Assembly: GCA_964551725.1 (NCBI GenBank)
Contig: CAZKED010000001.1
Coordinates: 42,119 to 106,118 of the forward strand
Origin: an uncultured archaeon
GTDB taxonomy: Archaea; Iainarchaeota; Iainarchaeia; Iainarchaeales; DTGL01
Direction: 5' to 3'
DNA: 64,000 nt
The notes beneath the pieces are model-generated. The model did not search any database and had not been told where the DNA came from. It saw nothing but the letters and a program-made list of their open reading frames with translations. Every line of letters begins with the position of its first letter. Position 1 is the stretch's first letter. Made by a program: the position numbers and the translations under genes. This document shows positions 19,756 to 57,923 of this stretch, piece after piece.

Positions 19756-19760
19756 ATTAA

Positions 19761-20702: not shown

Positions 20703-20765
20703 TTCTTGCAGGGAACAGCCGTGCCGGCGGCAGTCGGAAAACTATTTTAAATCCTTTGATGTTAT

Positions 20766-21560
20766 ATGTGTGCAATTGAATTGTTTGCGCGGAGAGGTGT
20801 TTTTTTGGAAGGAAAAGTGGAATTTGTGGAGCACGGAAAGGTTGACTTGAAGGGTTATACTTTAATAGAGGGCTTTCCCGGGCTGGGCTTGGTCGGAACG
20901 ATTGGAGTGAAATACATTGTGGAGAGGCTCAAGTTCAGGTCTGTCGGGCACATTGAGAGCGATTTCTTTGTTCCCATTATAAGGGTGCACGAAGGCCTGC
21001 CTGTGTATCCCTCGCGCATTTACGTTAACAAGCAGAAGAAGCTCGCGGCGCTTGTGTCCGAGCAGATAATTCCGAGGAATATGACGGCGACCATTGCCAG
21101 AAATGTGGTGGAGTGGGCTGCAAAAAAGGGAATAAAAAAGGTAATTTCAATAGAGGGAATTCGGACAAAGGGCGCAAAGAACGGGGCGGAAATGAAGATT
21201 TACGGGATTGCCTGCAACGAGAAATCCAAGGCGGACCTCAAAAAATTCAAGGTTCCGATTGTAGGGGAGGGAATCACCACAGGCGTTACTTCAATGATTT
21301 TGCTTGAAATGTCGAAGCAGGACAAAATCGAAGCGTACTCTCTGCTGGGGAACGTGAAAATCGCGGCAGACTACAAGGCTGCCGCGGAATGCCTCAAAAA
21401 ACTGGACGAAATTTTGGGGAACCAGTTCAAAATAAACGTGCAGCCGCTGCTCAAGGAAGCAAAGGAAACAGAAAAAGCGCTCCTCTCGCACCTGGGAAAA
21501 TTAAAGCAGACCGAAGCCACGGTTAAAAAGTTCGAGAAAGGCGTGCCCATGTACACCTGA
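20766..21560 (+). CDS. PAC2-family (proteasome assembly chaperone-like, COG1938) protein
   Basis: The 264-aa ORF has the N-terminal LIEGFPGLGLVGTIGVKYIVERL motif that I associate with the PAC2 family. The length fits. The TATA-like ctattttaaat sits close to the ATG, so the transcript may be leaderless. Confidence 0.45.
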   Translation: MCAIELFARRGVFLEGKVEFVEHGKVDLKGYTLIEGFPGLGLVGTIGVKYIVERLKFRSVGHIESDFFVPIIRVHEGLPVYPSRIYVNKQKKLAALVSEQIIPRNMTATIARNVVEWAAKKGIKKVISIEGIRTKGAKNGAEMKIYGIACNEKSKADLKKFKVPIVGEGITTGVTSMILLEMSKQDKIEAYSLLGNVKIAADYKAAAECLKKLDEILGNQFKINVQPLLKEAKETEKALLSHLGKLKQTEATVKKFEKGVPMYT

Positions 21561-30050: not shown

Positions 30051-30821
30051 TTAAGGTGCAGCGGAACAGTTGAGGTATTCCTCTGATGTCAATTTACTGC
30101 CGTCAGGAGCCTGGGGCAAGGGCTTTGCGGGCCAGAACAAAAGGTCAACATATGCTTGGAAGTTGTGCTGCGTGAATTCTTCCGGTCCTTCCTCTTTGAG
30201 CTTTCTGAAGTTCACCAGAACGCTCGGGGGCTTGTTTATTTCGCCGACTTTAAGGAATAGAAGGCGGTCCAGGTCGTTGTCCGTCTTGATTTCCCCGCTT
30301 TGCTTGGGAAAGCAGTAATAGGTTTTTCTTTCCCCGGAAAATTCGTGCTCGCCTGTCTGCGTGTACTCGGCTGTGTAAAGCAGCACGAAAACGAAGGCAT
30401 TCTTCTCGTCGGCGGGAATCCAGTCCTCGTTGTCGAACTGCTGCGGCGGGATGTAAATGTAAAAGAAGTAATCGTATGCCTGCTTCAGGGGATCCATTAC
30501 CGTGCCCACTGAATCCCTGAGCCTGTCCTGCAGTCCCCCGCTCAAAGCGGAGTCGCTCGCGTAATCCTCCTTTATCATGGCAAGGAGGTAGTCGACTTCG
30601 CTTGTGTCCTCTATATTCTCGCCTGGAACTCTCGGAACGCTGGAGTAAAGAATGGTTTGAAGCGCGGAAGCGGCGTAGTCAGCACCGTAAAGGCTTTCGA
30701 GGTTCTTGTTGACGTTTATGCCGAAAGTGCCGCTTATTGAAAACATGAATGCTGAAAGCCCTGCAACAATGAGCAATAGGAACAATGCGTCTGTTATCGC
30801 CGCCTGCCCCCTGCAGTTCAT
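30051..30821 (-). CDS. Type IV pilin-like protein with a class-III signal peptide (MNCRG|QAAITDALFLLLIVAGLSAFMF)
   Basis: The internal ATG at 30821 is preceded by GGGGGA. A basic residue plus Gly is followed by a hydrophobic stretch of more than 20 aa. This is the last gene of the pilin array. Confidence 0.55.
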   Translation of the reverse strand: MNCRGQAAITDALFLLLIVAGLSAFMFSISGTFGINVNKNLESLYGADYAASALQTILYSSVPRVPGENIEDTSEVDYLLAMIKEDYASDSALSGGLQDRLRDSVGTVMDPLKQAYDYFFYIYIPPQQFDNEDWIPADEKNAFVFVLLYTAEYTQTGEHEFSGERKTYYCFPKQSGEIKTDNDLDRLLFLKVGEINKPPSVLVNFRKLKEEGPEEFTQHNFQAYVDLLFWPAKPLPQAPDGSKLTSEEYLNCSAAP

Positions 30822-30868
30822 TCCCCCACTGTGCCTGAATTCTGGCACCGCTGTTCTGCGGAATGCCT

Positions 30869-31366
30869 TCAGTCCCACAGCACCACCACCAAAAGCAGGG
30901 GTCTTATGGCAAACCCGCTTCTGACGCTTGAGTCCTGGAAAGCGAAGGGAAACTTTTTCACCATAACTTCTGTGTCGTGGCTTATTTCCCTCTCCATATT
31001 GGAGCATTCCAGGAGTTCGCCGTCTATTTCGAAAATGCCCTCGTCCTCGTTCACGAATTCCATGACGTCAAAGGTCTGCTCCAGGGGTAGTTTTACTGCC
31101 CCGACCTTGTAGTAAACGCTTATGACCTCGCTTATGCCGCCGCACAATTCGAAGAATTCGTCCGGCGTATCCATGTAGCGGTCGCCGCGCAGCCTGTCGC
31201 TTATTTCAAGGAGGCTTATCGCGTTGCTGAACTCGCGCTGCCCGCTGTCAAGTCTCTGGAAAGTTGTCGTGAATGTTGCGAAAAAAATTACAAGAGCGAA
31301 AAGTATGGGAATGAGGCTCGGCAGGTCGTCTCCTATCGGTCCAATGAATCCTTTCCTGCTTTTCAT
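30869..31366 (-). CDS. Pilin-array protein with leader MKSRKG followed by FIGPIGDDLPSLIPILFALVIFFATF. Possible atypical class-III signal.
   Basis: The ATG at 31366 is preceded by GGAGAGAAGG. A KG motif precedes the hydrophobic segment, but Asp-Asp intervenes, so the assignment is tentative. Confidence 0.4.
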   Translation of the reverse strand: MKSRKGFIGPIGDDLPSLIPILFALVIFFATFTTTFQRLDSGQREFSNAISLLEISDRLRGDRYMDTPDEFFELCGGISEVISVYYKVGAVKLPLEQTFDVMEFVNEDEGIFEIDGELLECSNMEREISHDTEVMVKKFPFAFQDSSVRSGFAIRPLLLVVVLWD

Positions 31367-31404
31367 TCTTCCGCCTTCTCTCCTTTTTTCCCGTTTTGAT
31401 TCTT

Positions 31405-32028
31405 TCAGGTTTCGGATAAAATGCAAGTGCTCGGCATGCCTCTTTCCGCTTTGACCATGTTTCCCACTGTTTGCTCGTTGTCGAGGCACGACCCCTCATA
31501 GTGGGAAGTGCACGGAATCAGGTAAAGCTTTTTTTCGCCGTGGTAGATTTCTTTTATTATTATGAGGCTGTCCATTACGGGCTCCCTTGACTGGGGGTCA
31601 AGCGTGGTTTTATCCGCATCTTCAAGGGAATTGGTCACCCTGTCAAAATCGAAAATCAAGAATTCCGCATCGGAATCGATTCTCTGGGAAGCCATCACCG
31701 GCTTTTTTTCACCGCGCGCCGGCCTCCTCGTTACTTCAACGACAAGCGTTGATTCTTCCGCGGACTCTATTTTTCGCAGGTTCATTATGTAATAAACCTG
31801 CCCTGCGTAAAGGCTTCTTATGTAGGGCTGCAGAGAGATCTCCCTTTTAATGCACAACTGGTCGCTTTCAAGCACTTCGACCATTGTCCTGCCGTTCTTC
31901 CTCACTATCCTGCTTGCCTCGCTTCCTATTGAAATCCCGTCCAGGTTATAGGTGAAAAAAATTACTATCGCAAAAAGCGCTGTTACGAGAATGAGGAGGT
32001 TGAGCTTGCTCAGGGCAAAGCCGATCAT
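31405..32028 (-). CDS. Pilin-array protein with an N-terminal hydrophobic anchor (MIGFALSKLNLLILVTALFAIVIFF)
   Basis: Its ATG overlaps the upstream stop (TGATG). There is no K/R-G site, so it could be a very short-leader pilin (MIG|F...) or simply a membrane-anchored accessory protein. Confidence 0.4.
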   Translation of the reverse strand: MIGFALSKLNLLILVTALFAIVIFFTYNLDGISIGSEASRIVRKNGRTMVEVLESDQLCIKREISLQPYIRSLYAGQVYYIMNLRKIESAEESTLVVEVTRRPARGEKKPVMASQRIDSDAEFLIFDFDRVTNSLEDADKTTLDPQSREPVMDSLIIIKEIYHGEKKLYLIPCTSHYEGSCLDNEQTVGNMVKAERGMPSTCILSET

Positions 32029-32585
32029 CAGAGTCCCTTCCTGTAAGCGCATATCACGGGAAAAGCGTGGTTCGGCGGCGTTACATTGAACAGTTCATAG
32101 CTGCCTGCCGGAATTCCCTCGAAGAAATCGTGCAATACGTATTTCGGGTCGTCCGCAGAGCGGTCCGTGCATTCTCCCGGGGAAGACTGCCCCTTGAAAT
32201 TGGTGACCAAAGGAATGTTAACGCACACCTTTCTAGCATAGCCCTGGCTGTAGTATTCCAGCGCAACGCATGAATCCCCGCCCTCACCGCAGAGCGTCGA
32301 GCACAGGCGCTTGTCGCTGTGCGCTTTCAGCTGCACTTCCGCATCCTCAAAACAGCCCGAAGGAATGCTGAACTTGAACCTCGTGGGGAAGCCGTCCCTC
32401 GTGGTTATCTGTATGTGGGATTTCAGGTCCTGGAGCGCGCTTTCAATCTCGCCCTTGCACCTCTCCTCTTGGAACACTTCTATTGCCTTATAGCCGACAA
32501 TGAGCACGAAGCCCATTACTATTATTGCCACGAGCAGTTCAAAGGGCGCCGATTCCTGCCCTTTTCTTCCCAAAAAGCCAGCCAT
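32028..32585 (-). CDS. Type IV pilin-like protein (class-III signal MAGFLGRKG|QESAPFELLVAIIVMGFVLIVG)
   Basis: This is the canonical archaeal pilin N-terminus. The track ORF extends to a GTG at 32723, and the true start is uncertain. A TATA-like tttaaatatt lies near 32795. Confidence 0.6.
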   Translation of the reverse strand: MAGFLGRKGQESAPFELLVAIIVMGFVLIVGYKAIEVFQEERCKGEIESALQDLKSHIQITTRDGFPTRFKFSIPSGCFEDAEVQLKAHSDKRLCSTLCGEGGDSCVALEYYSQGYARKVCVNIPLVTNFKGQSSPGECTDRSADDPKYVLHDFFEGIPAGSYELFNVTPPNHAFPVICAYRKGL

Positions 32586-32821
32586 AAAGAAAACCGTTAC
32601 TTCCCTATATTGCCCGCGGTCCGCGTCACTATTTCCTGCGAGCCCTGGAACATCGGCTTGATGAAGGCAATGAGCACCAGTGCGACAATCACGAGCACCA
32701 AGAGGAAATAAACCGAGGACCACTCCCCTTGCGCTTTCTCTTCACGAAAAAATCCAACCGCGCCGAGCATAGGCATCCATTAAAAGAAAGGGAAAAGGAA
32801 TATTTAAATGTTACTCGCCCG

Positions 32822-33376
32822 TCATTTTGAGTATCTCAACGCGACAAGGCAGCATGTTGCCTCGTCCTCGGTGCAGGGGCAGCCCTCAATCCATTCCGCC
32901 TTGAGGCCCTCGTTGCTGTAGTCCTCTATCGCCTGTTCCAGGAGAGTGCCTGAATCGCATAGAACGGAAAGGGTTGCCTCCCTTTTTCCCGTTACGTCGA
33001 GCGCGATTTTTTCAGGCGAACCGTTTTCCTGCCCCTCCGCGAAATCGCCGCTGTCGGCGAAATCACCCAGGCTGAGGCAGACTTTGTCGTTTGCCACTCC
33101 CCATTGCGCAATCGAAATCACTTCCTTGGAAAGCATTGTGCTTTTTTTTGAGCTGTCGAATGTTACCTTGCTCGACCTTTCGTAGCCACCCCTGTCGCTC
33201 AGCTTTTGCACGAGCTCGCCCGCTTTCTGGGCGGGTTCGTCCTTGGGGAAAAAATCCCACCATGGACCATAGATCAAGGTTAAAAGTATTCCCAGGATTG
33301 CAAGTGCAACTATTGCCGAAATCAAAAGCTTGAAAACGGAAAAGGACTGTCCTTTTTCATTGCGGAAAAAATTCAT
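32822..33376 (-). CDS. Type IV pilin-like protein (class-III signal MNFFRNEKG|QSFSVFKLLISAIVALAILGILLT)
   Basis: A GAGGTGA ribosome-binding site lies 5 nt upstream of the ATG at 33376. The C-terminus is Cys-rich (CPCTEDEATCCLVALRYSK). It is a paralogue of the next gene. Confidence 0.7.
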   Translation of the reverse strand: MNFFRNEKGQSFSVFKLLISAIVALAILGILLTLIYGPWWDFFPKDEPAQKAGELVQKLSDRGGYERSSKVTFDSSKKSTMLSKEVISIAQWGVANDKVCLSLGDFADSGDFAEGQENGSPEKIALDVTGKREATLSVLCDSGTLLEQAIEDYSNEGLKAEWIEGCPCTEDEATCCLVALRYSK

Positions 33377-33406
33377 CAGTTTCACCTCAGCATAAAAAGC
33401 AAAAAC

Positions 33407-33420
33407 GCAAAAGCGTTTGC
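33407..33420. promoter_or_regulatory. Near-palindrome GCAAAAGCGTTTGC between the TATA-like box and the pilin start codon. Candidate operator or leader hairpin.
   Basis: The dyad symmetry was read directly. The element was duplicated together with the gene (compare 34101-34114). Confidence 0.35.
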
Positions 33421-33515
33421 CAGAAGAATAGAAGGATTTCTCCTATTTAATGGTTTCTATGGGGGGTTTCGGCTGAAAAAAAACAGGCGGAATAAAAAGG
33501 GGAAAAAGGAAGCTT

Positions 33516-34064
33516 TCAGCGCTTCCTTAACGCTATGAGGCAGCACATTTCGTCCCTGCCCTCAAAATCGCAGTCGTCCGTCCACTCTTCCTCGAGCCCT
33601 TCGTATTCTCCTATTTCCTCTATGTCCGCTTCTATGAGGTCGCCCGCGTTGCAGAGCACCGAAAGTTCGACGTCCCTGCTGCCGCCCCTGTTGAAGGCTA
33701 TGAGCTGCGGAGAACCGTTCTCTTGTCCTGCTTCAAAGTCGTCTGTTTCTGAGAAATCGCCCAGGCTGAGGCATATCTGGTCGGGTGCCATTCCAACTTC
33801 CGCGGCAGCGATTATTTCACTGCTCCTCATTGTCTTTTTGTCAGCGCCAAATGTTACCACGTCTGACTTTTCATAGCCGCCCCTGTCTCTCAGTTCTCCT
33901 ACAAGCTCTGCCGCCTGCTCTGTCGGGTCTGCTTCCGTTCCAATCTGACCTATCGAGTTGATTACTGTCATCAGTATTCCGAGGATTGCCATTGCAATAA
34001 TCGCCGCAATGAGAAGCTTGAATGCTGAAAACGCCTGACCTCTTTCGTTTCGCAAAAAAACCAT
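33516..34064 (-). CDS. Type IV pilin-like protein (class-III signal MVFLRNERG|QAFSAFKLLIAAIIAMAILGILMT), tandem paralogue of 32822-33376
   Basis: The two paralogues share RDRGGYE, ICLSLGDF...DFAEGQENGSP, LSVLC and CCL[IV]ALR. A GAGGTGA ribosome-binding site lies before the ATG at 34064. Confidence 0.7.
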   Translation of the reverse strand: MVFLRNERGQAFSAFKLLIAAIIAMAILGILMTVINSIGQIGTEADPTEQAAELVGELRDRGGYEKSDVVTFGADKKTMRSSEIIAAAEVGMAPDQICLSLGDFSETDDFEAGQENGSPQLIAFNRGGSRDVELSVLCNAGDLIEADIEEIGEYEGLEEEWTDDCDFEGRDEMCCLIALRKR

Positions 34065-34100
34065 CCACATTCACCTCTGAATTCAGCGCATAAGCACAGC

Positions 34101-34114
34101 GCAAAACGTTTTGC
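34101..34114. promoter_or_regulatory. Perfect 14-bp palindrome GCAAAACGTTTTGC upstream of the pilin gene. Candidate operator.
   Basis: Read directly. The flanking roughly 50 bp (tgccag(g)aagaata(a)gga..tt(c)(t)cctatttaat(g/t)gtttc) are also conserved with the copy near 33400-33460. Confidence 0.4.
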
Positions 34115-34187
34115 CAGGAAGAATAAGGAAATTCACCTATTTAATTGTTTCTTTTTTGCGCGGCGCTTCCTGGGCGCTTCCGATTCG

Positions 34188-34640
34188 CTATATGCGGGGT
34201 TTTTTGCCGAAGGAAACATAGCATTCCGTGTTGCATTCGCTTCCCGAAGGCTGCTTGATGCACTGGTAGTAAACGTCAATCTGCATTCTCTGCCTCAATT
34301 CAATGCCCGCGCCGTCGCCCTTTATTTCCGCGTTCGCCATTTCCGTTGCCTGGAATTCAACGCACTCGCTGTCGAAATGGAACTGCCTCTCAAGGTCCAG
34401 GGCATAGTAGGACCCCTCCTTGAACATGAGGTTTTTCCTTTCCACTAATCCCTCGGAGCCGTCTTCCGAGGGCGCGCTCAGCGCATATTTGAAGCCCTCG
34501 TAGTAGCGCTCCATGCTTATAACGTACTGCATTTCGCTGAAGTACGTTATCGCGCCGAGGATTATGACGAAAATCATTGCCGCCATTATTACCGCCACCA
34601 GCAACCTGAAAGGAAGGAACTGCCCTTTTTCCCCGGGCAA
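34188..34640 (-). CDS. Type IV pilin-like protein (class-III signal MPGEKG|QFLPFRLLVAVIMAAMIFVIILG), first gene of the pilin array
   Basis: It starts with a TTG abutting the stop of the upstream platform gene. A KG-Q site is followed by a long hydrophobic helix. The rest of the protein contains Cys (ECNTECY). Confidence 0.6.
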   Translation of the reverse strand: MPGEKGQFLPFRLLVAVIMAAMIFVIILGAITYFSEMQYVISMERYYEGFKYALSAPSEDGSEGLVERKNLMFKEGSYYALDLERQFHFDSECVEFQATEMANAEIKGDGAGIELRQRMQIDVYYQCIKQPSGSECNTECYVSFGKKPRI

Positions 34641-37190
34641 TCAGAATCCTCCTCCGAAAGAACTCACAACAATATTGGTTACAAAGAAGGAAACAGTGAA
34701 AACAATCATTGAAATGGGCACGTACTTTGCGAGGTTGACTTTAACTAACAGGTTGTTGTCCTCCTCTATTTTCGTGGTGTAATAAATCACAATCACCGCT
34801 ATTTCGACGATGTAAACAAGCATTATCGCAAGGAACATGGGCGCGGAAACCATTGAAAGAAGCGCCTCGGGGTTAATCAACTGCTCGAAGGTTGTAACGT
34901 TGAACGTGCCGAGCCCCGCGCCGGCTGCCGCTTCGCTACTCTCGAAAAGGTCGTCCCCTGCAAAGGAGGCGAACAGCCGCACGATTACCTTGAACAATGA
35001 AGTGGTGATTCCGAGCACTACCGGTGCAATGAAAACAATCATTGTGCGCATTAACTGGGAGATGTCCATCACGAGGTTCTTCAGCATTTTTGAAACCTTT
35101 TCAGAATTCTCAAGCTGCAGGGACATTGAAACAAGGGTTCTGGCGGCAACATTCACTCCGAGTTTTACCGAGTCAACGAGCACTTTCATTCCCACTTTTA
35201 TTGTTTTTGACGGAATGTTCACCAGCGCGCCGTAGCGCGGGTCGAAAACCGCGGACTCCAATGGCATGCCCATCAGGTGGATGTTGTCGAGTGCTCTCCC
35301 AAAAATTCTGTCGGAGATTTTGTAGTTGGGTAGGAATTCCTTCACGTGCCTCAGCGCTTCCTCCATTGGCTTGTTTTCCCCCAAGCGCGAGGCGATAATG
35401 TACAGTGAGTCCTTGAATTCGGATTCGAGCTGCATTATTTCAACCTGCACCTTGCGCCTGTAAATGTTGGAGTAGTATACGAAAAAGTAAATGCATACTG
35501 CTGTGGTCAGCATCAGCCCGAAGATTAAATTGTTGGGCGTGGTGTCGTTTTCCTTCTGCATGAAGAAAACGGTTTTCCTGTAATAAAGGGCTTTTTCTGC
35601 CGCAATTCTTGCAAGCTCTGATTTGAGTCTCGCGGTCGACCAGCCGGGGTTCTGCTGCTCAAGTGCTTTTGCGTAATCCTCGCCCACGTATTTTCTCAGT
35701 TCCGAGAGCTCGGTGGCGTTGGAGGAGTACTCCCTGAAAAATTCGTTGTAGACATCCCCGCCTTCAGTGCTTCCGGCGGGCGGCAGTGCAAAGTAGTCCT
35801 CGTTGTAACCGCCTTCTCGGAGCACGTCGGCTTCCCGCCTGTCCGCGGGAAGCAATTGCTCGTCGGGAAGCAGCGGTTCGTTCCTTCCTTCAATCCCGTA
35901 GCCCGTGGACTTCGGGGGAATTCCTTCAACGTGCAGGAACCATGAAACGCTGACTCCGGCAATTAAAATTATTGCAATGGGAATCCATACGCTCATTTCC
36001 CTCCTGCCCAAAACCATTCTCCCCTTTTTGGGCAGTCCCGGATAGTTTTCCGGAATTTCCGGCGGCTCGTAAGTGGGTGGTCTCTGCCTCACCACCTGCA
36101 CTGCAAAAAAGAAGACGCCCAGCGGAATGCCAACATTGTACAAGAGCACCAGCACGACGGGATTTGCGAGAGGCGAACCCGTGACGAACGCGCCTATGGG
36201 AAGCACGATGAATAAGATTATTGGCAGCAGGACGCCGAGGTAGAACAGTATGGCGGAAGGCATTGAAAGGTCGCGGGCGTACTGCTCCATTTTTTCCTTT
36301 ACCGCGGAAAGAAGCCCTTCAGTGGTTTTGTCGAGGAGGGCATACCTCTTTGCTTCGGTGTCCTCGAGCACTGAAGCGCGGATGCGCATTAGTGCGAGCT
36401 TGAATTCCTTGCTGTACTTTCCCCACTTGTAGGCGAGTTCGTCCAGCCCTTCGGAGAGTGTTGGGTAAACGCCGATCTCAACGCTCCAGAGCAATGACCT
36501 GAAATCCGCGGAAATTTTTCCGCGTCCGTGTTCGGCTGCAAACTCAACCGCTTTTTCGAGGTTGGGGGTCAGCTTGAGGGACATTACCATGTACCCAATC
36601 ATTTCCGGAATATAGCCAAGAGCGCGCCTTTGCTCTGTTTTTATAACGCTCACGGGATAGCGCTGCACGAGCCTCGGCAGGAAAAAGACGAGAAGGAACA
36701 CCGGCATGAGTATGTAGATTATCCACATGGGTCCCGCGAGGGAAGAGAGCATTCCCGAAAGAGGAGTGAACCAGACAAGCATTACAAAGGCAAAGCTCAG
36801 CACTAGAGAGAGGAGCATTGTGAATTTGACAGCGGCGGAGAACTCCTCGGGTTTTATGTCCCAGCCGAGGAAATCAACGGCATTCCTGAATTCTTCCGTG
36901 AATTTTGCCCCTTTTCCCAGCGAGGGCATTGTCCTGTAAGCGCGCTTGCAGAAGCGAACGAAGCGGGGCTCTTTCTTCTTGAAGAGCTTTTTTTCCCCTT
37001 TTTCGAATTCCTCCGAGCTGAACTCTATTTCCTTGTAAAGCCTGCCCGGGGAAACCCTTCTCTTCGGCTTGGGTCTGGTGTGCAAAGGTCTTGCCTCGCG
37101 CCTGCTTTCCCTTTCAGGCGCTTTGTCAATCTTCCTGCGCCTTTCGTACCTTCGAGGCATTAAAAATTCCTCACTTGGAAAACCGGCCAA
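34641..37190 (-). CDS. FlaJ/TadC-like polytopic platform protein (T2SS-F domains), 849 aa
   Basis: A basic N-terminus is followed by multiple TM helices flanking cytoplasmic helical domains (LEKAVEFAAEHGRGKISADFRSLLWSVEIGV...LSEGLDELAYKW, and later a second similar domain). It overlaps the ATPase gene by 20 nt. Confidence 0.75.
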   Translation of the reverse strand: MAGFPSEEFLMPRRYERRRKIDKAPERESRREARPLHTRPKPKRRVSPGRLYKEIEFSSEEFEKGEKKLFKKKEPRFVRFCKRAYRTMPSLGKGAKFTEEFRNAVDFLGWDIKPEEFSAAVKFTMLLSLVLSFAFVMLVWFTPLSGMLSSLAGPMWIIYILMPVFLLVFFLPRLVQRYPVSVIKTEQRRALGYIPEMIGYMVMSLKLTPNLEKAVEFAAEHGRGKISADFRSLLWSVEIGVYPTLSEGLDELAYKWGKYSKEFKLALMRIRASVLEDTEAKRYALLDKTTEGLLSAVKEKMEQYARDLSMPSAILFYLGVLLPIILFIVLPIGAFVTGSPLANPVVLVLLYNVGIPLGVFFFAVQVVRQRPPTYEPPEIPENYPGLPKKGRMVLGRREMSVWIPIAIILIAGVSVSWFLHVEGIPPKSTGYGIEGRNEPLLPDEQLLPADRREADVLREGGYNEDYFALPPAGSTEGGDVYNEFFREYSSNATELSELRKYVGEDYAKALEQQNPGWSTARLKSELARIAAEKALYYRKTVFFMQKENDTTPNNLIFGLMLTTAVCIYFFVYYSNIYRRKVQVEIMQLESEFKDSLYIIASRLGENKPMEEALRHVKEFLPNYKISDRIFGRALDNIHLMGMPLESAVFDPRYGALVNIPSKTIKVGMKVLVDSVKLGVNVAARTLVSMSLQLENSEKVSKMLKNLVMDISQLMRTMIVFIAPVVLGITTSLFKVIVRLFASFAGDDLFESSEAAAGAGLGTFNVTTFEQLINPEALLSMVSAPMFLAIMLVYIVEIAVIVIYYTTKIEEDNNLLVKVNLAKYVPISMIVFTVSFFVTNIVVSSFGGGF

Positions 37191-39441
37191 CCATTGATTC
37201 CCGCACCCAGTCCTTCCATTCTTTCAGCACTTCCCTGTAGTTGACCTTTCCTTTTTCCTCGATTTCCTTTTCCTTCAAGAGCATTAATTTGTCGTGCGCC
37301 AGCGCGGAGTTTTCCGCTTCAAGAATCTCGGGCAGGGAATGCTCTTCTTTCAGTTTCACCAGGAATTCCTTGGACTCGCCGCGCATTCTAATCTCCTCCC
37401 ACATCTGCTGCATTGAGAGACCGGAAACCCTGCTTATTTTTTCGAAAATGTCCGATTCCTTCAAGTTGTCTTCCAGCAGTTCGAGCCTGTCCTTTTTGGC
37501 ATCATAGCGCATTAAGTCCAGCAACCCGCCTTCTCTTTCCGGGTCCTCAACCCAGTGCTTTTTTATTTCGGTTACTTCAACAACCCTGCGGTGGCTTTTT
37601 AGGGAACCGCCGAACCTTATGGGGCGGGCGGTAACAACAATGTCCGTTGCCTTGAAGGAGGTTGTCGGAACATCCAAGTCATTCACGACGCGGTCCCAGA
37701 CAGCGTAAGCGGAATCGCCGTGAATCGTTCCCATTACAACGTTGCCTGCAGCCCCAATGCGCATTGCCTCGTACAAAGTGCGCGCTTCCGTGGAGCGCAC
37801 TTCACCGAGCACCAGAGCGCTGTCGCCCAGGCGCAGGGCGGTGCGAAGTGCCTCTTCTGGGGCAACCTCTGTCTCGGTTTTTGAGACTCCTATGGGCGAG
37901 CGTGTTTTGAGCCTCTGTATGTTGAAGCCGATTCTCTTCATGTACTCCGCGGGAATTTCAAGCGTGTCCTCCTGGAGTATTATTCTCGAGTTCTTGGGAA
38001 TTTCGAGAATGTTCGCTGCCATCAGCGAGGTCTTGCCCGAGCCCCTGGAACCTGTAACGAGCATTGTTGTCTTGTTGTCGATGAAAAAGGAAATGAGCCC
38101 GGCTGCCATCGGATTCAAAAATTTCACGTCAATAAACTGTGCCAAAGTCCAGGGCGTGACCTTGTGCAGGCGGAAAGCGAATGCGACTCCGTCCGGCGCC
38201 AAAGGCGGCCCTATGGTTGCAATTCTTGTCTCCAGTTCCGGCAAATCGAAGTCGAGCACCGGGTGCGCTTCGTCGAATGGTCTTCCTGACATTGCGCGCA
38301 TTTTTGTTATGAGCGTCTGGGCTTCCTTTTCCGTGTAAAGAATGTTCGTGGAGCACTGCCCGAAATCCGAGTGCACCAAGTAAACCGGATTCTGCCCTAT
38401 TGGTGAATCCAAAAAAACATCCGTGAGCCTGCGGTCGGAGAGAATTATTTCAAGTATTCCGTAGCCCACGGTATAGCGCGCGACGATTTCGCTCAGTTCC
38501 TCCGCCTCTCTCTTCGTGATTTTTATTCCGTTTGTTTTCGCGACATCGAGGATTGTGCTCTGGTAAATGCGTTCGAAGTAATCCCGGGATTTTGCCACGG
38601 TGCTCAGCGACGCCTTTCCGGGAGTGTAGGCTGCAACGATTTCCTTTGTCTTGCTGAGAACGAAATATTTTTCGGGGGAAAGGGTGTATTCGGGCGGATT
38701 GATGAAGTATAGGTTCATTGTTTTGTTTGGGTGGTTGAATATCTGCACTGTGGTGTTCTTTACAGTATATTCGTCCAATAGCTCCAACTCTTCCTCGTCC
38801 TTGAACATTAACATCGAGCCTATGAAAGACGGCTTTATCTGGGCTTCGAAGAACACCCTGTATAAATCCTTTGTGTCCGGTATTTCCTCGAGTTCTGTCA
38901 AAAAGCGCTTTACTTTCTGTATGAGCGCGGTTTTTTCGAATTCGTCTTTCATGTATGCGAGGGTGCGCAGGTAAACCTTGCTTCCCTGCTTGTACTGTTC
39001 GCTGCCTTCCTTGTACCTGGCTTTTTCTTTCTGGAGTTCGAGCACGCAGGTGAAGTAGGCTTTTATGGGATCGTATGCGATGAGGTCGTGCGCTATCGTT
39101 ACCGCCATTTTGTGCCTGGGACCCAAAAACATTTCGTCCGCGCCTGGCTCGCCCAGATTCTTCGACGCCCAGACGGTTTCCGCGTCAAATTTCTGCATCA
39201 GTTCTACTATTTCCTTGAGGAGTGCAGTCTGCGCCTGGTCGTAAACGCGCTCGTAGGCTTCCGCCAGCACTATCAGGTCCGCTTCCATTTCGGACATCGC
39301 TTTTATTACGTGGTAACGGCATGCTTGGTCGTCCGCTATCGAGGTGCCGTAAACGCATTCCCTGCAGTCGAATAGCAGGTGGCGCTTGTTGGCTTCCTCT
39401 TTAACGGTGTAATCCCCTACCTTGAACCCGCCTATTTTCAT
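37171..39441 (-). CDS. FlaI/PilB-like type IV pilus/secretion ATPase with a long N-terminal extension
   Basis: The core carries Walker A LVTGSRGSGKTSLMAANI, Walker B RIILQEDTLEIP and His-box GDSALVLGEVRSTEARTLYEAMRIGAAGNVVMGTIHG. The N-terminal roughly 330 aa carry CRECVYGTSIADDQACRYH. The ATG at 39441 is preceded by AGGTG, and the track GTG is at 39459. Confidence 0.85.
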   Translation of the reverse strand: MKIGGFKVGDYTVKEEANKRHLLFDCRECVYGTSIADDQACRYHVIKAMSEMEADLIVLAEAYERVYDQAQTALLKEIVELMQKFDAETVWASKNLGEPGADEMFLGPRHKMAVTIAHDLIAYDPIKAYFTCVLELQKEKARYKEGSEQYKQGSKVYLRTLAYMKDEFEKTALIQKVKRFLTELEEIPDTKDLYRVFFEAQIKPSFIGSMLMFKDEEELELLDEYTVKNTTVQIFNHPNKTMNLYFINPPEYTLSPEKYFVLSKTKEIVAAYTPGKASLSTVAKSRDYFERIYQSTILDVAKTNGIKITKREAEELSEIVARYTVGYGILEIILSDRRLTDVFLDSPIGQNPVYLVHSDFGQCSTNILYTEKEAQTLITKMRAMSGRPFDEAHPVLDFDLPELETRIATIGPPLAPDGVAFAFRLHKVTPWTLAQFIDVKFLNPMAAGLISFFIDNKTTMLVTGSRGSGKTSLMAANILEIPKNSRIILQEDTLEIPAEYMKRIGFNIQRLKTRSPIGVSKTETEVAPEEALRTALRLGDSALVLGEVRSTEARTLYEAMRIGAAGNVVMGTIHGDSAYAVWDRVVNDLDVPTTSFKATDIVVTARPIRFGGSLKSHRRVVEVTEIKKHWVEDPEREGGLLDLMRYDAKKDRLELLEDNLKESDIFEKISRVSGLSMQQMWEEIRMRGESKEFLVKLKEEHSLPEILEAENSALAHDKLMLLKEKEIEEKGKVNYREVLKEWKDWVRESMVGRFSK

Positions 39442-39459
39442 TTCCGCACCTTTTTGCAC

Positions 39460-39584
39460 CCTTTGCGCGTTTTCCGCGTGCTGCAGAAAAAAGGGCTTAA
39501 GTCATTATTAAACCTATCTCTCCCCGCCGCGGGAGCGCAAAAAAAAGGGTTAAATTGCTTTTCGTTTTTAATTTCACTGGTAGA
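39460..39584. promoter_or_regulatory. Divergent promoter region between the ATPase operon (-) and the sortase-like gene (+)
   Basis: It contains tttaataatgac (minus-strand TATA-like) and two AAAAAAGGG(C/T)TTAA motifs at about 39487 and 39540. Confidence 0.3.
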
Positions 39585-40217
39585 ATGGCGCGCAGGAAAA
39601 ATAATGCAGATGCTTTCGCCGCCGCGCGCGCGGCGGCGGAAAAATGGCTGGCATTCGAGAGAAAGAATGCAAAAAGCGAGGCGTTCAAGGCAGCAAAATT
39701 TCTGGCGGCATTCGCCCTCGTTTTTTTCGGGCTGAATTTTTTTCTCTCTTTTGTGCCGCTGCAGTTTTTCGAGGTGCCGGTGGCAGTGGCAATAAAGGGA
39801 TTCCTTGCAACGCAGAGCGTTGGGGCAAGAATCATTGCAACGGAGCCCGTTATAGTGGCGGCGGAAACAGGGCTTGATGTGTCAGTATCATACCTCTGCA
39901 CAGGGCTGCTCGAAAGCGTTGTGTGGATTGGAATAATCGCCGCTTCCCTGGGCGTGGAGTGGAAGAAGCGCTTGGCAGGCGCGTTCCTCGGTTTGGCTGG
40001 ACTGGCGGCATTCAATCTTTTGAGAATTTTCACAACGCTCTATTTCGTGCTCAACTCGGATGTCAGCACGGTGACTTTTATACATAACACATTTTTCAGA
40101 GCCGCATTATTCGCTGTATTGGTCGGATTTTACGGAATATGGTTCTGGCTTTCGGTCAGGAGCGAAATGACCAGAGGGAGGGAAAAGGGAAAAAGGCAAA
40201 AGAAACAAAAAAACTAA
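39585..40217 (+). CDS. Polytopic membrane protein with exosortase/archaeosortase-like features (small ArtE-like variant?)
   Basis: The 210-aa ORF has a cytoplasmic Ala-rich N-terminus, at least 5 TM helices, Cys115 in SYLCTGL, Arg157 in FNLLRIF (an N-x-x-R-I context, C-to-R spacing 42), and a basic tail. It sits immediately upstream of the giant-protein array. The assignment is by motif only. Confidence 0.4.
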   Translation: MARRKNNADAFAAARAAAEKWLAFERKNAKSEAFKAAKFLAAFALVFFGLNFFLSFVPLQFFEVPVAVAIKGFLATQSVGARIIATEPVIVAAETGLDVSVSYLCTGLLESVVWIGIIAASLGVEWKKRLAGAFLGLAGLAAFNLLRIFTTLYFVLNSDVSTVTFIHNTFFRAALFAVLVGFYGIWFWLSVRSEMTRGREKGKRQKKQKN

Positions 40218-40293: not shown

Positions 40294-43200
40294 ATGTTCG
40301 GAAACTCACTTGGCTCCTTTTACACAAAGATTGAGGACAAATGGTATTCCGCCATAGACTGGCTTGACCGGAAAGGAATTCCTTTTTACGTTTTCACGGA
40401 TTTTCTCGAAAAGCGCGGAATTCCCTCGCTTCCTTTTTCAATCGCCGTCTTGTTTTTGCTCGTGCTATTGCTTTCCACTGTTTCTTTCGGAACAGCCGTG
40501 AATGCAACGCTTTCATTCAACATTTCAGATGCACACGGAGACCCGCTGCAGGGCGTTACAGTAACAATAACCGATGCAGCAGGAAAGCAGGTGGAAAAGA
40601 AAGCGGTAAGCGACGGCGGGAAAATTTTACTGCAGGGCGCCCCGGTCGGAGCGGTTTACGAAATAAGCGCCGCAAAGCCGGGCTATGTTCAGGATGACAC
40701 CACTGCAAAAATTGATTCTGCTTCGGTGAATGTTTACCTCACGCTCAGGGCGGACTTGCAGCTTGCAGAGGGAATGCTTTCCCTCGTGGACGAAAGAAGC
40801 GGCACGGCAGTTAGGAATCCCGTGTGCATTGTGAAATACGAGGGGCTGGACATTGACGGCAGCGTGGACAGCAAGCAGGTGATTCATTTCAGCGGCATTC
40901 CCGCGGGAGAGGAAGTGATAGTGCAGTGCACGGCGAACGGATACGAGGACCTTTCAATCCCAATCGCGTTCAGGGAAGGCGAAACAATGCAGCAGGTCAT
41001 GACACCGCTTACCGCGGCGCTGACCGGCGACTCTTTTGTTCTCGTTTCATTGTACGAGTGGACTGACGGCGAGGCAAAGCCGCTGAGCGGGGTTCGCCTT
41101 ATAATAAAGAACGCGGAAACAGGAAATACGATAAGCGACGTCAATCTCGGGGAAGACGCGGAATACGCTGAAACGCTTAAAAAGGGCACGGTCATAACAA
41201 TCACAGCGGAAAAAGAGGGCTTTATTACTGCGGTGTGGCCTGAAACCACTCTCAGGGAGGAGGAAACGCCAATTGAAATCGTGATGAGGAAAGGCGGCGA
41301 AAAGCTCGTTGTGAGGGTGAATGCCGAGGACACGGGACCTTTAAGCGGTGCAATAGTGCAGTTGTACGATGCCGCGGCTGAACTGATAAAGGAGGAAACC
41401 ACAGACTTCAGCGGCTTCGTTGAGCTTGTGGGCATGGACCCTAACGCGACGTATTACATTACGGCGTACAAGGACCTGTACGTCGCGCAGAGGAAAAAAA
41501 TAATTCCCGGGGAACTCGAGGAACTTGTTTTCACTCTTGAGTACGCGAGCCCGCAGAATTCCTCCACGCTTTCAATAAAAGTGCTCGATTCTGCTGGATT
41601 CTATGCGAACGGCGCATCGCTTTATTTTTATGAAAGAAGCGGGGAAGAAGTGCTGCCTTTGGGCATTCCAGTAAAGTACGCTGACCTGAGGGGGGAAGCG
41701 ATAGCACAGGTTGAAAAGGAAAAGCTCGTTGTTGTCGTCGCCAAGAAGGATTTGGAAGAGGGAGAGGGCGAAGCGGAAATAACGCAGAGCTCGCACGAAA
41801 TGGAAATACAGATGGAAAAACCCGTCAATTTCGTCGAGCTGAAGCTCGTGGACGAATTCGGCAATCCGGTTCCTGGAACGGCGAACATTTCAACGCAGTC
41901 CGGCGAAGAGCTTTACAGCGGGGAAATTTCAGATGCAATATGGTTCGATTCGCAGGGAAACGAAAAAGTTGTGCTCGCGGTTGAACAGGAAGGGGAAAAA
42001 ATTTACGAGGAAGAAGTGGAAGTCGACAGCAAGACGGAAATAGAAATAGAAATTCCTTTGGGAGAAGAGGCAAGAATTCCTGCAATTGAATTCCTGGGCG
42101 TGTTCAACGCAATGGACGAGGAAGTCGAGGGAATCACGCGCGGTGAATATTACTGGCTGAAATTCAGCGCCAGTCTGCCGCAGTCGGAGAAAAGCGGGGT
42201 TCATGTCAGGGTGGGAAACGACTCGCAGAAGTTCGCGGACGAACAGCGCGTGGGAATCTACGGCTTTGATTCCGCACCTGGAGACTTTTTCTTCGGGCGC
42301 AGCTACCAGCCCCCCTCGGGACAGGCAATCGACTACAAGAACCGCGGGAAAGCGGGAGAGAAAAACAAATGGGTTGAAATCTATTTCGACAACCCGGCGG
42401 ACACAGAAATAATAAGGGTGAAAGTAAAAACAGAGGAAACCTTTTCAAGGGAAGAATTCGAAGTGCACTTCAGGGCGTTCGCGAAATTCAGGGGAAAATT
42501 CTACAATTCTCCGCAGAGCACCGGGGAAATGCAGCTTTATTCCGAGACGTACAGCGAGAGCGTGAGGGTTTTCACCACACGCACGCTGTGCAGCGAGGGA
42601 CTGTGCGCCGGCTACCTGTTCAGGGACGCGGAGGGAATGGAATTCAGGGAAAACGAATTCAAGCCCATACTGGAAAGACCCTACGCGCTTGAAATAACGC
42701 TGAGCGCGAAAGAAGGGGAAAAGGTGAATCTCACAGCGAGCACGAGAGCGAATGCCGCGGCAATGGCATTCTGGGGGATTTCACTGGACGAGTTTGCAGT
42801 CGTTCCCGAGCAGGGCTACGAGCTCGCGAGCGCGGACATAGCGGACGTGCAGGTAGAGCGCGGCGAGGAAGTCAAAGCGGTTGTTTATTTCATGCCAAAG
42901 GAAACAGGGCAGGGCTATCTGGAGATATCCGTGCAGGGAACGGAGAACGAGATAAGGAAGAAATTCTACTTCGACGTGGCGGAGGAAAGAAACATAAGCA
43001 TTGAAATGCCCGGAAAAGGAAAGCTCACCCTCGGGGAAAACCTTTTCCTGCGCCTGACCGACGCGGAAACAAGCGAATTTTTGACAAACGCGAAACTCAG
43101 GCTTGAAAACATCGACACAGAGAAGATTGAAGTCTCAACCGTAGGAACGAACACGAGAAACAACGGCTTGAACGGGGAATATTCCCTTGAAACCTCGCAC

Positions 43201-50357: not shown

Positions 50358-50628
50358 CTGCGTTACGGAATTTTGGCGAAAAATTCGGGCGCAAAACATT
50401 TAAATAAGAAGTCAGTCATAATAATGTCATTATTGATATAAAGAATATAAAAAGAAAAAATAAAAGAGAGCTAAACAGGCATAAAAGCAGGGAAAACAGC
50501 GGTAAAAAAGAGGGAAACTCCTCAAATGGCGGGAATTGCACCGGAAAGTGAAAACAGGGGAAAACATATAATTAAATACACAATTCGGAAGAAATTATTT
50601 AATTGGTAAAGGTTATTAAGTGAATAAA

Positions 50629-53600
50629 ATGGGTGTGGTGGATTCAATCAAGGATTTCTACTTCCGCCTTGAGGAAAAATACTATAAATTCGTTGACTGG
50701 CTCGACACAAAGCATTTCCCCTACTACAAATTCGTTGACTTTGTCGAAAGCCGCGGCATTCCGAGTTTTCCGCTTTCCATAGCTGGAATTGCTGTCATTG
50801 CACTGCTTTTGTTTTTCTTTGCGGTTCCCCTGCTGGGAATCGAATTTCCCATTGCAAGAGTGCCTCTTTCAGTTGAGGTAATGGACGGGAAAGGAAACGG
50901 GATATACAACGCCTTGGTGGAAATAAAGGGAGCAGATTTTTCGGAGCAGGGAAGGACAGACGGAGCGGGAATTGCGGAATTCAACGTTCCGATGGAAACC
51001 CAGTTAACGGTAAGCGTTGAAAAGAGCGGGTTTGAAAAATACGCGGACTCGTTTTCCGTCAGCAGGGAGGAAACGAAAACAATCGAGTTAAGCGCGGAGG
51101 AAATCTCGAGGGAAATACTGTTCAAGAAAAAGGGGACAGAGGAGCTCGTGGAAGAGACAATAAACGTTTCATTCGAGTGCTCCAATATTGAGGCGGATTT
51201 CGAAGAGCAGAGAACAGTGCAAAACGGAAGGGTGGAACTGGATGGAATCCCCGCAAACTGCGGTCTGCTGGAAGTGAAGGTTGAGGGCTTTGCAGTGGAC
51301 AAAGACATTGATTTGGATGAAACGCTGCCCGAAGTTTTCCTGGCCGGGGAAGAAGCCGGAAAGGGAAGAGTGTACGTTCTCGTGAAGGAAGAGGAAACAA
51401 AAAAACCCCTTGAGGGAATGCGCGTAGTGCTTGTCGGAGCGGTGGAGCGCTCCGATCTGAGCGATGAATCGGGAAGCGTGGTATTCGAGGGCGTTCCGGC
51501 GGGAGATTACTACGTAAAAGTAATGGATGCGCTCGAATACGAGGACCATGTTTCGGACACAAAAACGCTGCAGGAGGAAGACAGCGTTACTTTCAGCATA
51601 GAACTCGGAAAAGCGGCAAGGGCGCAAATAAACCTCAAAGTGGTTGATGCTACAGGGGAGCCAGTGGAAAAGGCAGCACTCAAGCTCTACAGGCAGGGGG
51701 GAACAAGCGTTGAGTACTCCGGGGAAACCGACCCGATAGGGCAGTACACTTTTAATGTTCCCACTGAAACAAAATACACGCTCGTGGTGGACAAGGCGGG
51801 ATACTTCAAGGCGCAGCTTTCAGTCGAGGCACAGGAAGAATTTTTTGAGGTAACGCTGAAGGAACAGACCTCGGAGAACGGCGGGTCAATTGCAGTGAGC
51901 GCAAAGGACCAGAAAGGGAATGCTGTTGAAAACGTGAAGGTAGAATTAAAACTTGCCGACGGGGAATTCACGGGATACAGCGCTTTCACGGGAGCGGACG
52001 GAAGGGCTGAATTTACAGCAATAGAACCGGGCAATTACTACGTGTACGGCTCGAAGCAGGGCTTTGAAGGGTATGCAAGCAACGAGTTCCAGGTAAGAGA
52101 AAGGGAAATAACAAGCGTGCAGCTGGTGTTCGTAATAGGAGAGGGCGAGTTCCTGGTAAAAGTGCTCGACGATGCGGGAAACGCGCTGGCTGGTGCAAGC
52201 GTTGAAGCAATTGACGTTTTCACTGACAGGATGATGTCCCAAAAAACAACCGATTTAGAGGGCATCGCGCATTTCAGGGAGAGAGTGGACAGGAAGGTTT
52301 TTTTCGTGACGGAAGCCGACGGCTTTTTGCCTTTTGTGTCACTGCCCTTTGTACCGGTGCAGGACTCGCAGAGAGAAGTGGAAATCCGCATGATAAAAGG
52401 AACGGGAAAAATTAAAACAAGCATGACACTGCTGCTCAATGACATGGAAGTCAGGGAATTTGTCTCGGCAGGCGAAAGCTATAAGGCATTGGTGCAGCTG
52501 GTGCTGCCGAGCGAATACAATAAAGCGGGAATTCATTTGCGCGCGGGAGAAGATACTGAAGGAAAAGTGAATTCCGCCGAAGAAGACATCATTTTCATAA
52601 GGGAAATCGAAGCGGCGAACGCCAATATCAGGACAGGTTCAACTTATACCCCGCCTTTCGGGAGCGGGCAGGATTACGCAAGCAATGGGAGCACCAAGTG
52701 GGCGAACATAGAATTCGAGCCCGGGAAAAAGGGGCTGCCGAGCAGGGGCGTGTTCAACGCAATCGCGGAAGTGCAGGTAAGGGACGAAGCGGCAATGGGC
52801 GAGGATACAAAAATAAGCTACCGCGGTTATGGAGTAAGTGCAACGTATTCAAGGGACCCGATTGACGCGGCGCTTGGGAGCGCCGAATCCTCGGCAAGAA
52901 AGCATGGACTGTACGCGCAGGCATACGACAGGCATTTTTCCGTCGGACAGAGCAATGTGTGCAGCGGGGGCTACTGCAGGATTATCTTTATCGAGGACGT
53001 TGAAAGCGGAATGAAGAGCGCGGTAATTGATTCGTTTCCCGCGAACATTTCAAGCATGTATGAGTTAAACGTGAAACTCAACAAGGCAGGCGCGGGAAGT
53101 GTGAGGAATGCCTTCCTCGAAGTGCGCAACCCGGAACAGGGACTGGAATTCGGGGAATACTCAATCTCCGACGCGGCGGGAAGGAAGTTCGAGGGAAACG
53201 CGAACGGAAGCGAACTCTCAAAAGCCGTGGGAGACCTGGCGCAGGATTTAAGCGTGAGCGCGAGCATTGAATTCCAAACCCTCAAGGAGGGAACAAACCA
53301 GATTGAAATCTCGCTTGCATCGGAATCCGGAAAGGTGTTCGGGCAAACAATAAAGGTGAACGTGAGGGCGGGAGAAGAACTCCAGCTTGAAATCGTTCCC
53401 AAGGACATTGTGCCCTTCATCGACAACCAGCTGCTTTTCAGGGTTTCCACTCTGGAGGATGCACCAGTCCCAAACGCTTTTATCGAGCTTTCCCTTGACG
53501 GATACGACCTTGCAAGCGGGGAAACCGATAGCGCGGGAATATTCGCATTCGAACTCGAAGCGCCCAGCGCGGGCTCCGAGCTCCTGGCGAGAGTGAAAAA

Positions 53601-57831: not shown

Positions 57832-57923
57832 GGGCAAAACAGCGATTGAAAACGTTTAATAATGTAAGGAGACATTAAAATAAATTGGAGGAATAACCAG
57901 GAAAAGGATTTGGGGTAATTTGT

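Follow-up and report, generated by a model that had tools for sequence, protein, structure and literature searches.

A candidate minimal archaeosortase in a conserved pilus-like, giant-protein gene cluster of Iainarchaeota

The sortase-family gene and its product

The 64,000-nucleotide stretch of DNA analysed here (the window) comes from contig CAZKED010000001.1 of an archaeon of the Iainarchaeota, uncultured DPANN archaea for which the means of contact with cells or surfaces is not established. It carries a small gene of the archaeosortase/exosortase family (below, the sortase gene), with a divergent set of pilus-like genes on one side, ending in the gene for a large secreted protein with a conserved C-terminal tail, and a row of genes for giant proteins on the other. 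An earlier note on this DNA had placed a possible archaeosortase at the head of the giant-protein array and had proposed, with low confidence, that it is a sortase-like processing enzyme for local surface proteins. The gene order agrees with the first statement, the sortase gene being followed by genes for proteins of 2,776, 578 and 2,403 amino acids (aa) and then by one for a giant that extends over 2,034 aa or more, and the proposed function is supported by the evidence set out below.

39585-40217, plus strand: archaeosortase/exosortase-family gene, 210 aa, assigned from TIGR04178, residue conservation, charge topology and an AlphaFold2 (AF2) model

The open reading frame (ORF) runs on the plus strand from an ATG at 39585 to a stop codon at 40217. 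An alternative TTG start at 39555 would give a product of 220 aa, but the 210-aa form is the one used in public gene calls and by the closest homologues, and the ATG is favoured because a TATA-like A/T-rich sequence falls between the two codons. The 210-aa protein contains both motifs singled out in the earlier note, SYLCTGL and FNLLRIF. The two residues that it named, Cys115 and Arg157, are numbered as in the 220-aa reading; for the coordinates given in that note the numbers are 10 too high, and in the 210-aa protein the residues are Cys105 and Arg147.

The protein matches TIGR04178, the NCBIfam exosortase/archaeosortase signature, scoring 29.9 bits where the curated cutoff is 23 (E=5e-7), the match spanning residues 99-189 and model positions 1-94 of 97. 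Among 75 aligned homologues, 74 match the same model and 47 match PF09721 (Exosortase_EpsH); several of them already carry the NCBI name 'exosortase/archaeosortase family protein'. Since the score lies above a curated cutoff at E=5e-7, and both Cys and Arg are invariant in 75 of 75 sequences, family membership is beyond chance resemblance. The 210-aa protein is the sole member of the family in the window. It reaches no subfamily cutoff among ArtA-ArtH, XrtH, XrtX, XrtG and pacearchaeosortase, and the ArtA equivalog TIGR04125 does not match it at all, giving a weak match in just 2 of its 75 relatives. Its scores against the small subfamilies are as follows.

ArtD (TIGR04175): 25.3 bits, cutoff 125
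XrtH (TIGR04177): 27.3 bits, cutoff 86
XrtX (NF046081): 26.9 bits, cutoff 170
XrtG (TIGR03110): 22.3 bits, cutoff 102.75
Pacearchaeosortase (NF033505): 9.6 bits, cutoff 80

With scores of 9.6-27.3 bits against cutoffs of 80-170, the protein therefore belongs to none of them. Near relatives are very rare, amounting to 3 clusters in 5.8 billion proteins, and an exhaustive HMMER scan of 1.84 billion representatives yielded a wider family of 192 proteins, nearly all of 160-220 aa. When one genome per GTDB species was scanned with a 13-sequence alignment of the family as the query, 41 loci were found (referred to below by L numbers where they need to be told apart), nearly all labelled Candidatus Iainarchaeum or Diapherotrites (DPANN). 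Judged by its sequence, the 210-aa protein is a member of the exosortase/archaeosortase superfamily that stands outside all named subfamilies, and its relatives form an unnamed minimal subfamily restricted to Iainarchaeota/Diapherotrites. One family representative of 1,102 aa, P0132, carries a sortase-like domain at residues 13-194 and may be a natural fusion of the enzyme with a large protein.

The 75 aligned sequences are about 25-40% identical. Cys105, Glu110, Gly132, Asn144 and Arg147 are invariant in all 75, so the Cys and Arg are retained in homologues, and neither outcome named in the earlier note as refuting its reading (no superfamily HMM match, or loss of either residue in homologues) was observed; His167 is present in 74 of 74, and position 172 is Arg in 70 of 74 and Lys in the other four. 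The spacing from Cys105 to Arg147 is 42 residues. Mean net charges across the 75 sequences are +4.65 for the N-terminus, +2.55 for the loop at residues 125-129 and +3.19 for the C-terminus, which are assigned to the cytoplasm, and -2.19 for residues 60-102 and -0.81 for residues 157-172, which are assigned to the outside. This positive-inside bias therefore puts Cys105, His167 and Arg172 at the outer face, with Asn144 and Arg147 in the outer half of the third transmembrane (TM) helix, in accord with the outward-facing Cys that had been suggested. The predicted layout begins with a basic cytoplasmic N-terminal helix, TM1, and an outside helix with a three-stranded sheet, and continues with Cys105 at the opening of TM2, Asn144 and Arg147 in TM3, His167 and Arg172 in an outer loop, TM4 and a basic cytoplasmic tail. 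An AF2 model built with the family alignment (predicted local distance difference test score 95, predicted template modelling score 0.82) shows an N-terminal helix, TM1, a helix with three short strands and then three long helices, a secondary structure that fits the charge topology. The prediction is of a four-TM protein with an outward-facing site, as a sortase-type enzyme acting outside the cell would require.

No solved structure resembles the AF2 model, and our structure searches found none for the exosortase/archaeosortase enzyme family. This lack of a structure to compare with, together with the modest TIGR04178 score (29.9 bits) and the absence of a Pfam match for the window protein, leaves room for a reading in which the 210-aa protein is a non-enzymatic structural membrane subunit that looks like an exosortase through hydrophobic composition alone. 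Such a subunit is, however, hard to reconcile with Cys, Glu, Asn, Arg and His residues in or at the edge of TM helices that are invariant across 75 sequences of about 25-40% identity, or with the match of 74 of the 75 members to the signature model, and we consider this explanation extremely unlikely.

A large secreted protein with a conserved C-terminal tail

The gene at the far end of the divergent set encodes the protein that we regard as the best candidate substrate, and the features at that end are the following.

24224-28741, minus strand: secreted protein of 1,505 aa, with a Sec-type signal peptide at its N-terminus; a conserved gene that closes the cluster
24224-24337, minus strand: candidate tripartite C-terminal signal of the 1,505-aa protein, made up of NLPSLPE (24317-24337), a TM segment of about 20 aa NALELLFFLSLLIGAVLLV, the basic tail RRRILIVRKKN and the stop codon
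28746-29294, minus strand: p182, a 182-aa four-TM membrane protein of no known family, directly upstream of the 1,505-aa gene

The 1,505-aa protein has no match in Pfam, NCBIfam or PDB sequences. The same kind of ending, LPSLPE or LPAWPE with a TM segment and a basic cluster after it, is found in each of its close homologues and in a relative of 26% identity, and a metagenome scan with the family alignment added seven further members at 31-41% identity. Twelve tails can be aligned: N-[LI]-P-[SGA]-[LVIW]-P-E leads into about 20 hydrophobic residues of no fixed sequence, and Arg/Lys and the stop follow. The motif is near-invariant in these 12 sequences: its seven residues rank third in conservation among 1,499 windows of the protein, and above it stands only the segment used as the search pattern, of which the tail motif itself was no part. 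The candidacy that the earlier note gave to this tail as a sorting signal is much strengthened, the motif being kept across distant orthologues and the gene lying in the sortase's own cluster.

In six-frame translation of 946 kb of DNA, the motif occurs 15 times, 11 of these being tails of the family and the other four falling in short non-coding frames. In frame, it is confined in this sample to the 1,505-aa family, each time with a TM segment, a basic cluster and a stop after it. Curated CTERM models were compared with 11 tails (that of the L057 orthologue, eight other tails of the family and two from other proteins of the window, described below); none reached its cutoff and the sole match was Loki-CTERM with the L057 tail, at 14.1 bits against 19.9. 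A protein-database search with the 52-aa tail alone gave no usable candidates. N-[LI]-P-[SGA]-x-P-E followed by a TM segment and a basic cluster is thus a putative sorting tag that no curated model covers, and its conservation suggests that the 1,505-aa protein is probably a dedicated sortase substrate.

Conserved synteny points in the same direction. Loci were read with 10-kb flanks, and most of those centred on the sortase gene end roughly 1 kb before the 1,505-aa gene is reached. The four loci with enough flank around the 1,505-aa gene (L056, L057, L058 and L062) all share the cluster end, at 31-34% identity, in the order ATPase, 849-aa membrane protein, pilin-like genes, p231, p215, p318, p182 and 1,505-aa orthologue. 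In L015, a gene of the 1,505-aa family lies 8 kb from the sortase gene.

The p182 gene is paired with the 1,505-aa gene in L051, L056, L057 and L058, with a few bases between them. The strictness of this pairing would suit a second explanation, in which the tail is processed by p182 and the sortase-family protein does something unconnected with it. But the p182 family conserves neither Cys, His, Asp or Glu nor a Ser-His pair, its conserved residues being W, S, Y, P and G; it has no hidden Markov model (HMM) matches; and it is unrelated to the sortase family, with an hhalign probability of 0.4%. On this last result and the absence of conserved catalytic-type residues we rejected p182 as a second sortase or protease, and the explanation built on it appears very unlikely. 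An outer loop of p182 holds a conserved 'hydrophobic-P-E' element.

Further tail-anchored secreted proteins occur in the window and in related loci.

37-2262, plus strand: C-terminal portion of a beta-helix giant (3,338 aa or more) that ends in a TM segment and a basic tail (PTGFFGLG...KFRK)

The earlier note had given the tail sequences of this ORF and of the 1,505-aa protein exactly. It had also taken 37-2262 (listed at 741 aa) for a complete protein, but the frame is open at the left edge of the window, and a longer contig from this organism (L052 1-9878) shows the ORF to be the last part of a protein with NosD/Beta_helix domains that measures no less than 3,338 aa. The further suggestion that the tail is PGF-CTERM-like was rejected: neither PGF-CTERM nor any other CTERM model matches it at E<=10, and the ORF covers only part of a giant. 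The tail also has no NLPSLPE-type motif. The second additional tail belongs to a 547-aa secreted protein (15432-17075, plus strand), whose gene comes directly after that of a 3,140-aa giant (5987-15409). This protein has 'IIPPE' right before a TM segment and then a tail of about 90 aa with an extreme Lys/Arg run, KKKKKKKRKKRKKRKKKKKKK; a 'P-E-x-x-L-x-x-L' pattern before the TM segment is similar to that of the 1,505-aa tail. In L011 (80-706) and L015 (9271-9888), the sortase start is overlapped by the gene for a protein of about 205 aa, which has a signal peptide and, at its C-terminus, 'NP[SI]ILP' followed by a TM segment and a basic tail. This protein may be a lineage-specific extra substrate. 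A signal common to these proteins and the 1,505-aa tail was considered and rejected, the alignment being unconvincing.

These proteins form the basis of a third explanation, namely that the sortase is real, that the 1,505-aa tail is a permanent anchor only, and that the true substrates lie elsewhere in the genome with another signal, possible candidates being the giant of at least 3,338 aa (PTGFFGLG, TM and KFRK), the 547-aa protein (IIPPE, TM and Lys-rich tail) and the 205-aa protein. The number of such tail-anchored proteins, the 'P-E-x-x-L-x-x-L' that the 547-aa and 1,505-aa proteins share before the TM segment, and the position of the 205-aa gene directly before the sortase gene in two loci all lend it some weight. 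On the other hand, the alternative tails have no motif common among themselves, none matches a curated CTERM model, and none of these proteins is conserved in the cluster across lineages; a conserved motif and conserved synteny are combined only in the 1,505-aa family. We regard this explanation as unlikely, though the most deserving of attention among the rivals considered here.

Pilus-like genes and giant proteins around the sortase gene

The remaining features of the cluster are listed below.

30051-34640, minus strand: eight small pilin-like genes (major and minor), with class-III-like (prepilin-like) N-termini [KR]-G|Q-x-F (the bar marking the presumed cleavage site) and then a hydrophobic helix
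34641-37190, minus strand: membrane protein of 849 aa that occupies the place of a pilus platform protein (TadC/FlaJ-like), its role assigned from position alone
37171-39459, minus strand: type II/IV secretion-family (FlaI/TadA-like) ATPase, divergent from the sortase gene; PF00437 T2SSE, E=6.7e-17, over the gathering score
40294-48624, plus strand: giant of 2,776 aa directly 3' of the sortase gene, with a conserved N-terminal module (KGIPxY...RGIPSLPF and a TM segment), immunoglobulin-like and CarboxypepD_reg domains (Pfam) and no C-terminal TM segment
48621-50357, plus strand: 578-aa protein with a pilin-like N-terminus, kept after the giant (15 loci), no family match
50620-57831, plus strand: second giant, 2,403 aa, paralogous to the first and sharing its N-terminal module
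57921-64000, plus strand: third giant of this paralogous set, sharing that module; its frame has at least 2,034 codons and runs past the right end of the window

The conserved order is [1,505-aa <- p182 <- pilin-like genes <- 849-aa <- T2SSE ATPase] <-> [sortase -> ~2,800-aa giant -> 578-aa (-> more giants)]. Pilus-like genes were found in 30 of 34 loci with the sortase gene, the T2SSE/FlaI-like ATPase adjoining it in 23 and pilin genes abutting it directly in several. The ATPase also matches the FlaI (E=3e-41) and TadA (E=3e-37) models, in both cases under the equivalog cutoff. The 849-aa protein is kept at 41-49% identity in 24 sortase loci and is present in the 1,505-aa-centred loci L056 and L057; Pfam and NCBIfam gave no match for it, and no T2SSF HMM matched. 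The eight small pilin-like genes are conserved across loci and match no pilin or other family HMM, their [KR]-G|Q-x-F pattern having been read by eye. No prepilin peptidase of the PibD/FlaK type was recognised among the window proteins scanned, which did not include every ORF. Full-text literature on archaeosortases in DPANN archaea and on surface proteins or pili of Iainarchaeota/Diapherotrites yielded no description of this subfamily, cluster or signal.

Several smaller observations concern the same genes. The major pilin-like pair (32822-34070, minus strand) and its orthologues in L020 and L033 have a conserved 'CC[LI][LVI]A[LI]' end followed by a few variable, mostly basic residues, and further cluster proteins terminate in 'C-A-Y-[RK]-[RK]'; these Cys-containing C-terminal strings are probably disulfide-stapled last strands. 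A second secretion-ATPase module (17195-21560, plus strand), which retains its syntenic place downstream of the 1,505-aa gene even in distant lineages (L056-L062), comprises a 597-aa T2SSE ATPase (a homologue of which has N-terminal 4Fe-4S ferredoxin domains), two membrane proteins, one of them T2SSF, and a PAC2-family protein.

On the other side, 30 of the 33 informative loci have a giant of 2,400-2,950 aa no more than 5 kb downstream of the sortase gene and in the same orientation, the median gap being 365 bp. The larger gap in L015 is due to the insertion of two small toxin-antitoxin-like genes (10625-11226) between the sortase gene and the giant. The giants share an N-terminal module of about 45 aa, '..ExKWY..D.L..KGIPxY....LExRGIP[SAF][LF]P', followed by a TM segment, which is common to the three paralogues of the window (40294-40500, 50620-50830 and 57921-58130) and to the giants of L010-L047. 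Conservation in the giant is highest over its first 50 residues (identity 0.64). In the 2,776-aa giant, column identity falls from 0.35-0.64 in the first 2,000 residues to 0.06-0.27 in the last ~700 (~2100-2776), which suggests that the less conserved C-terminal part is a variable 'business end'; the orthologue in L014 ends with a string (..AYNGWG..) that by eye resembles lytic transglycosylases. A TM scan found no C-terminal TM segment or sorting signal in any of the giant orthologues examined. A candidate internal tripartite signal at residues ~2030-2130 of the giant was rejected, since this region is a hydrophobic, Cys-rich hairpin that is only semi-conserved and lacks a basic cluster. The short minus-strand ORFs listed at 58-64 kb are shadows of the third paralogous giant.

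The proximity of these genes raises the question of whether the sortase acts on the downstream giants themselves, through their N-terminal 'RGIP[SAF][LF]P' and TM segment, releasing or cross-linking them. In keeping with this, the giant adjoins the sortase gene on the same strand in those 30 of 33 loci, its first 50 residues are its best-conserved part, and 'IPSLP' in the giants resembles 'LPSLP' in the 1,505-aa tail, each directly before a TM segment. However, Lys and Arg residues precede the module and the ectodomain follows the TM segment, so that the RGIP motif is expected on the cytoplasmic face, opposite the predicted outer active site, and the direction of the helix is reversed relative to all known sortase signals. 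The RGIP site resembles instead the [KR]-G| class-III cleavage pattern of the adjacent pilin-like genes, and no giant orthologue has a C-terminal TM segment. We therefore hold this explanation to be distinctly unlikely. The module has the look of a prepilin-type (class-III) signal whose leader is unusually long, and the giants are probably handled by the pilus-like machinery via their pilin-like N-termini rather than by the sortase; they may be cargo or tip components of that machine.

Proposed role and comparison with known systems

Taking together the family membership, the invariant catalytic-type residues, the predicted outward topology, the conserved tripartite tail and the conserved synteny, we favour, with a probability of roughly 0.6, the reading that the 210-aa protein is a minimal archaeosortase that forms a fixed part of a surface-apparatus cluster and acts on the 1,505-aa protein via its conserved tail. 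In this proposal, the 1,505-aa protein would be exported by its Sec signal peptide and held in the membrane by its C-terminal TM segment and basic tail. The sortase, with its Cys105/Arg147/His167 site in the outer leaflet, would then recognise the juxtamembrane N-L-P-S-L-P-E, and Cys105 would cleave at or beside it through a thioacyl intermediate, after which the protein would be passed to an acceptor, most plausibly a membrane lipid by analogy with ArtA, or released. The pairing of enzyme and tail, the cleavage chemistry and the acceptor are inferred. One enzyme thus appears, from the sequences, to serve one substrate within one apparatus.

Several points weigh against this reading. The sortase and 1,505-aa genes are found on one contig in the window and L015 only; in L056-L062, the position of the sortase lies just past the 10-kb flank and hence could not be read. 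The immediate neighbours of the sortase gene are the giants, and some 10.8 kb separate it from the 1,505-aa gene at the opposite cluster end. The juxtamembrane motif could be part of a permanent, never-cleaved TM anchor, and the 946-kb sample in which it was counted is biased to these loci and silent on the rest of the genomes. As for the enzyme, Pfam, PF09721 included, gives no match for the 210-aa window protein itself, every named subfamily model scores far under its cutoff, and the activity of the subfamily is deduced from sequence.

A more ambitious proposal is that the archaeosortase is a working part of a pilus-like host-attachment machine and joins the 1,505-aa protein covalently to the pilus, the giants or the envelope. 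For this we see only a slim chance; if true, it would couple type-IV-pilus-like assembly with sortase-type transpeptidation, a combination of which we know of no described case. Returning to the minimal archaeosortase and its putative tail substrate, the sampled Iainarchaeota conserve a cluster in which pilus-like machinery and giants of 2,400-2,950 aa with pilin-like N-termini go with a minimal archaeosortase and with a large protein that bears a candidate new sorting tag. For annotators, the cluster supplies the definition of an enzyme subfamily and a tail signature that are absent from curated models, and a 210-aa, four-TM putative enzyme with an apparent single substrate would be a convenient minimal system for the mechanism of a poorly characterised family.

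The first point of comparison is ArtA of Haloferax volcanii, which cleaves PGF-CTERM signals and attaches lipid (PMC6098224, PMC9263693), and in which Cys173, Arg214 and Arg253 are experimentally required (PMC9263693). The 210-aa protein shares with ArtA the superfamily signature, a conserved Cys and Arg at nearly the same distance (42 residues here, 41 from Cys173 to Arg214 in ArtA), a predicted outer-face active site and a candidate substrate built of motif, TM segment and basic tail. It differs in being much smaller, with about four TM segments, in the motif (NLPSLPE rather than PGF), in having apparently a single dedicated substrate whereas ArtA has many, and in the embedding of its gene in a pilus-like cluster. 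The third conserved residue here is His167 (with Arg172 near), which may correspond to Arg253 of ArtA or to the His of a sortase-like triad.

In its minimal size, the protein is closer to ArtD, XrtH, XrtX, XrtG and pacearchaeosortase, whose models are 150-190 aa long; these small subfamily models are its best-scoring ones and match nearly full-length, but its lineage, Iainarchaeota, sets it apart from them. The tail can be compared with Loki-CTERM (NF033507), likewise a short C-terminal motif with a TM segment and a basic cluster limited to one archaeal lineage, but with the L057 tail as far below the Loki-CTERM cutoff as described above, the signature N-[LI]-P-[SGA]-x-P-E is found in no curated model.

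A further parallel comes from bacteria. Rhombosortase, a rhomboid serine protease that acts with GlyGly-CTERM, is linked to type II secretion in Vibrio. There, as here, a C-terminal sorting enzyme stands beside an export machine related to type IV pili, but the enzyme family is unrelated and the linkage is functional, whereas here it takes the form of a fixed gene cluster. Lineage-specific enzymes and signals have already been catalogued in other archaea, among them pacearchaeosortase, heimdallarchaeosortase and Loki-CTERM, and the 210-aa protein and the tail therefore extend a known kind. The unusual feature is the fixed place of the sortase in a pilus-like, giant-protein cluster of a DPANN lineage.

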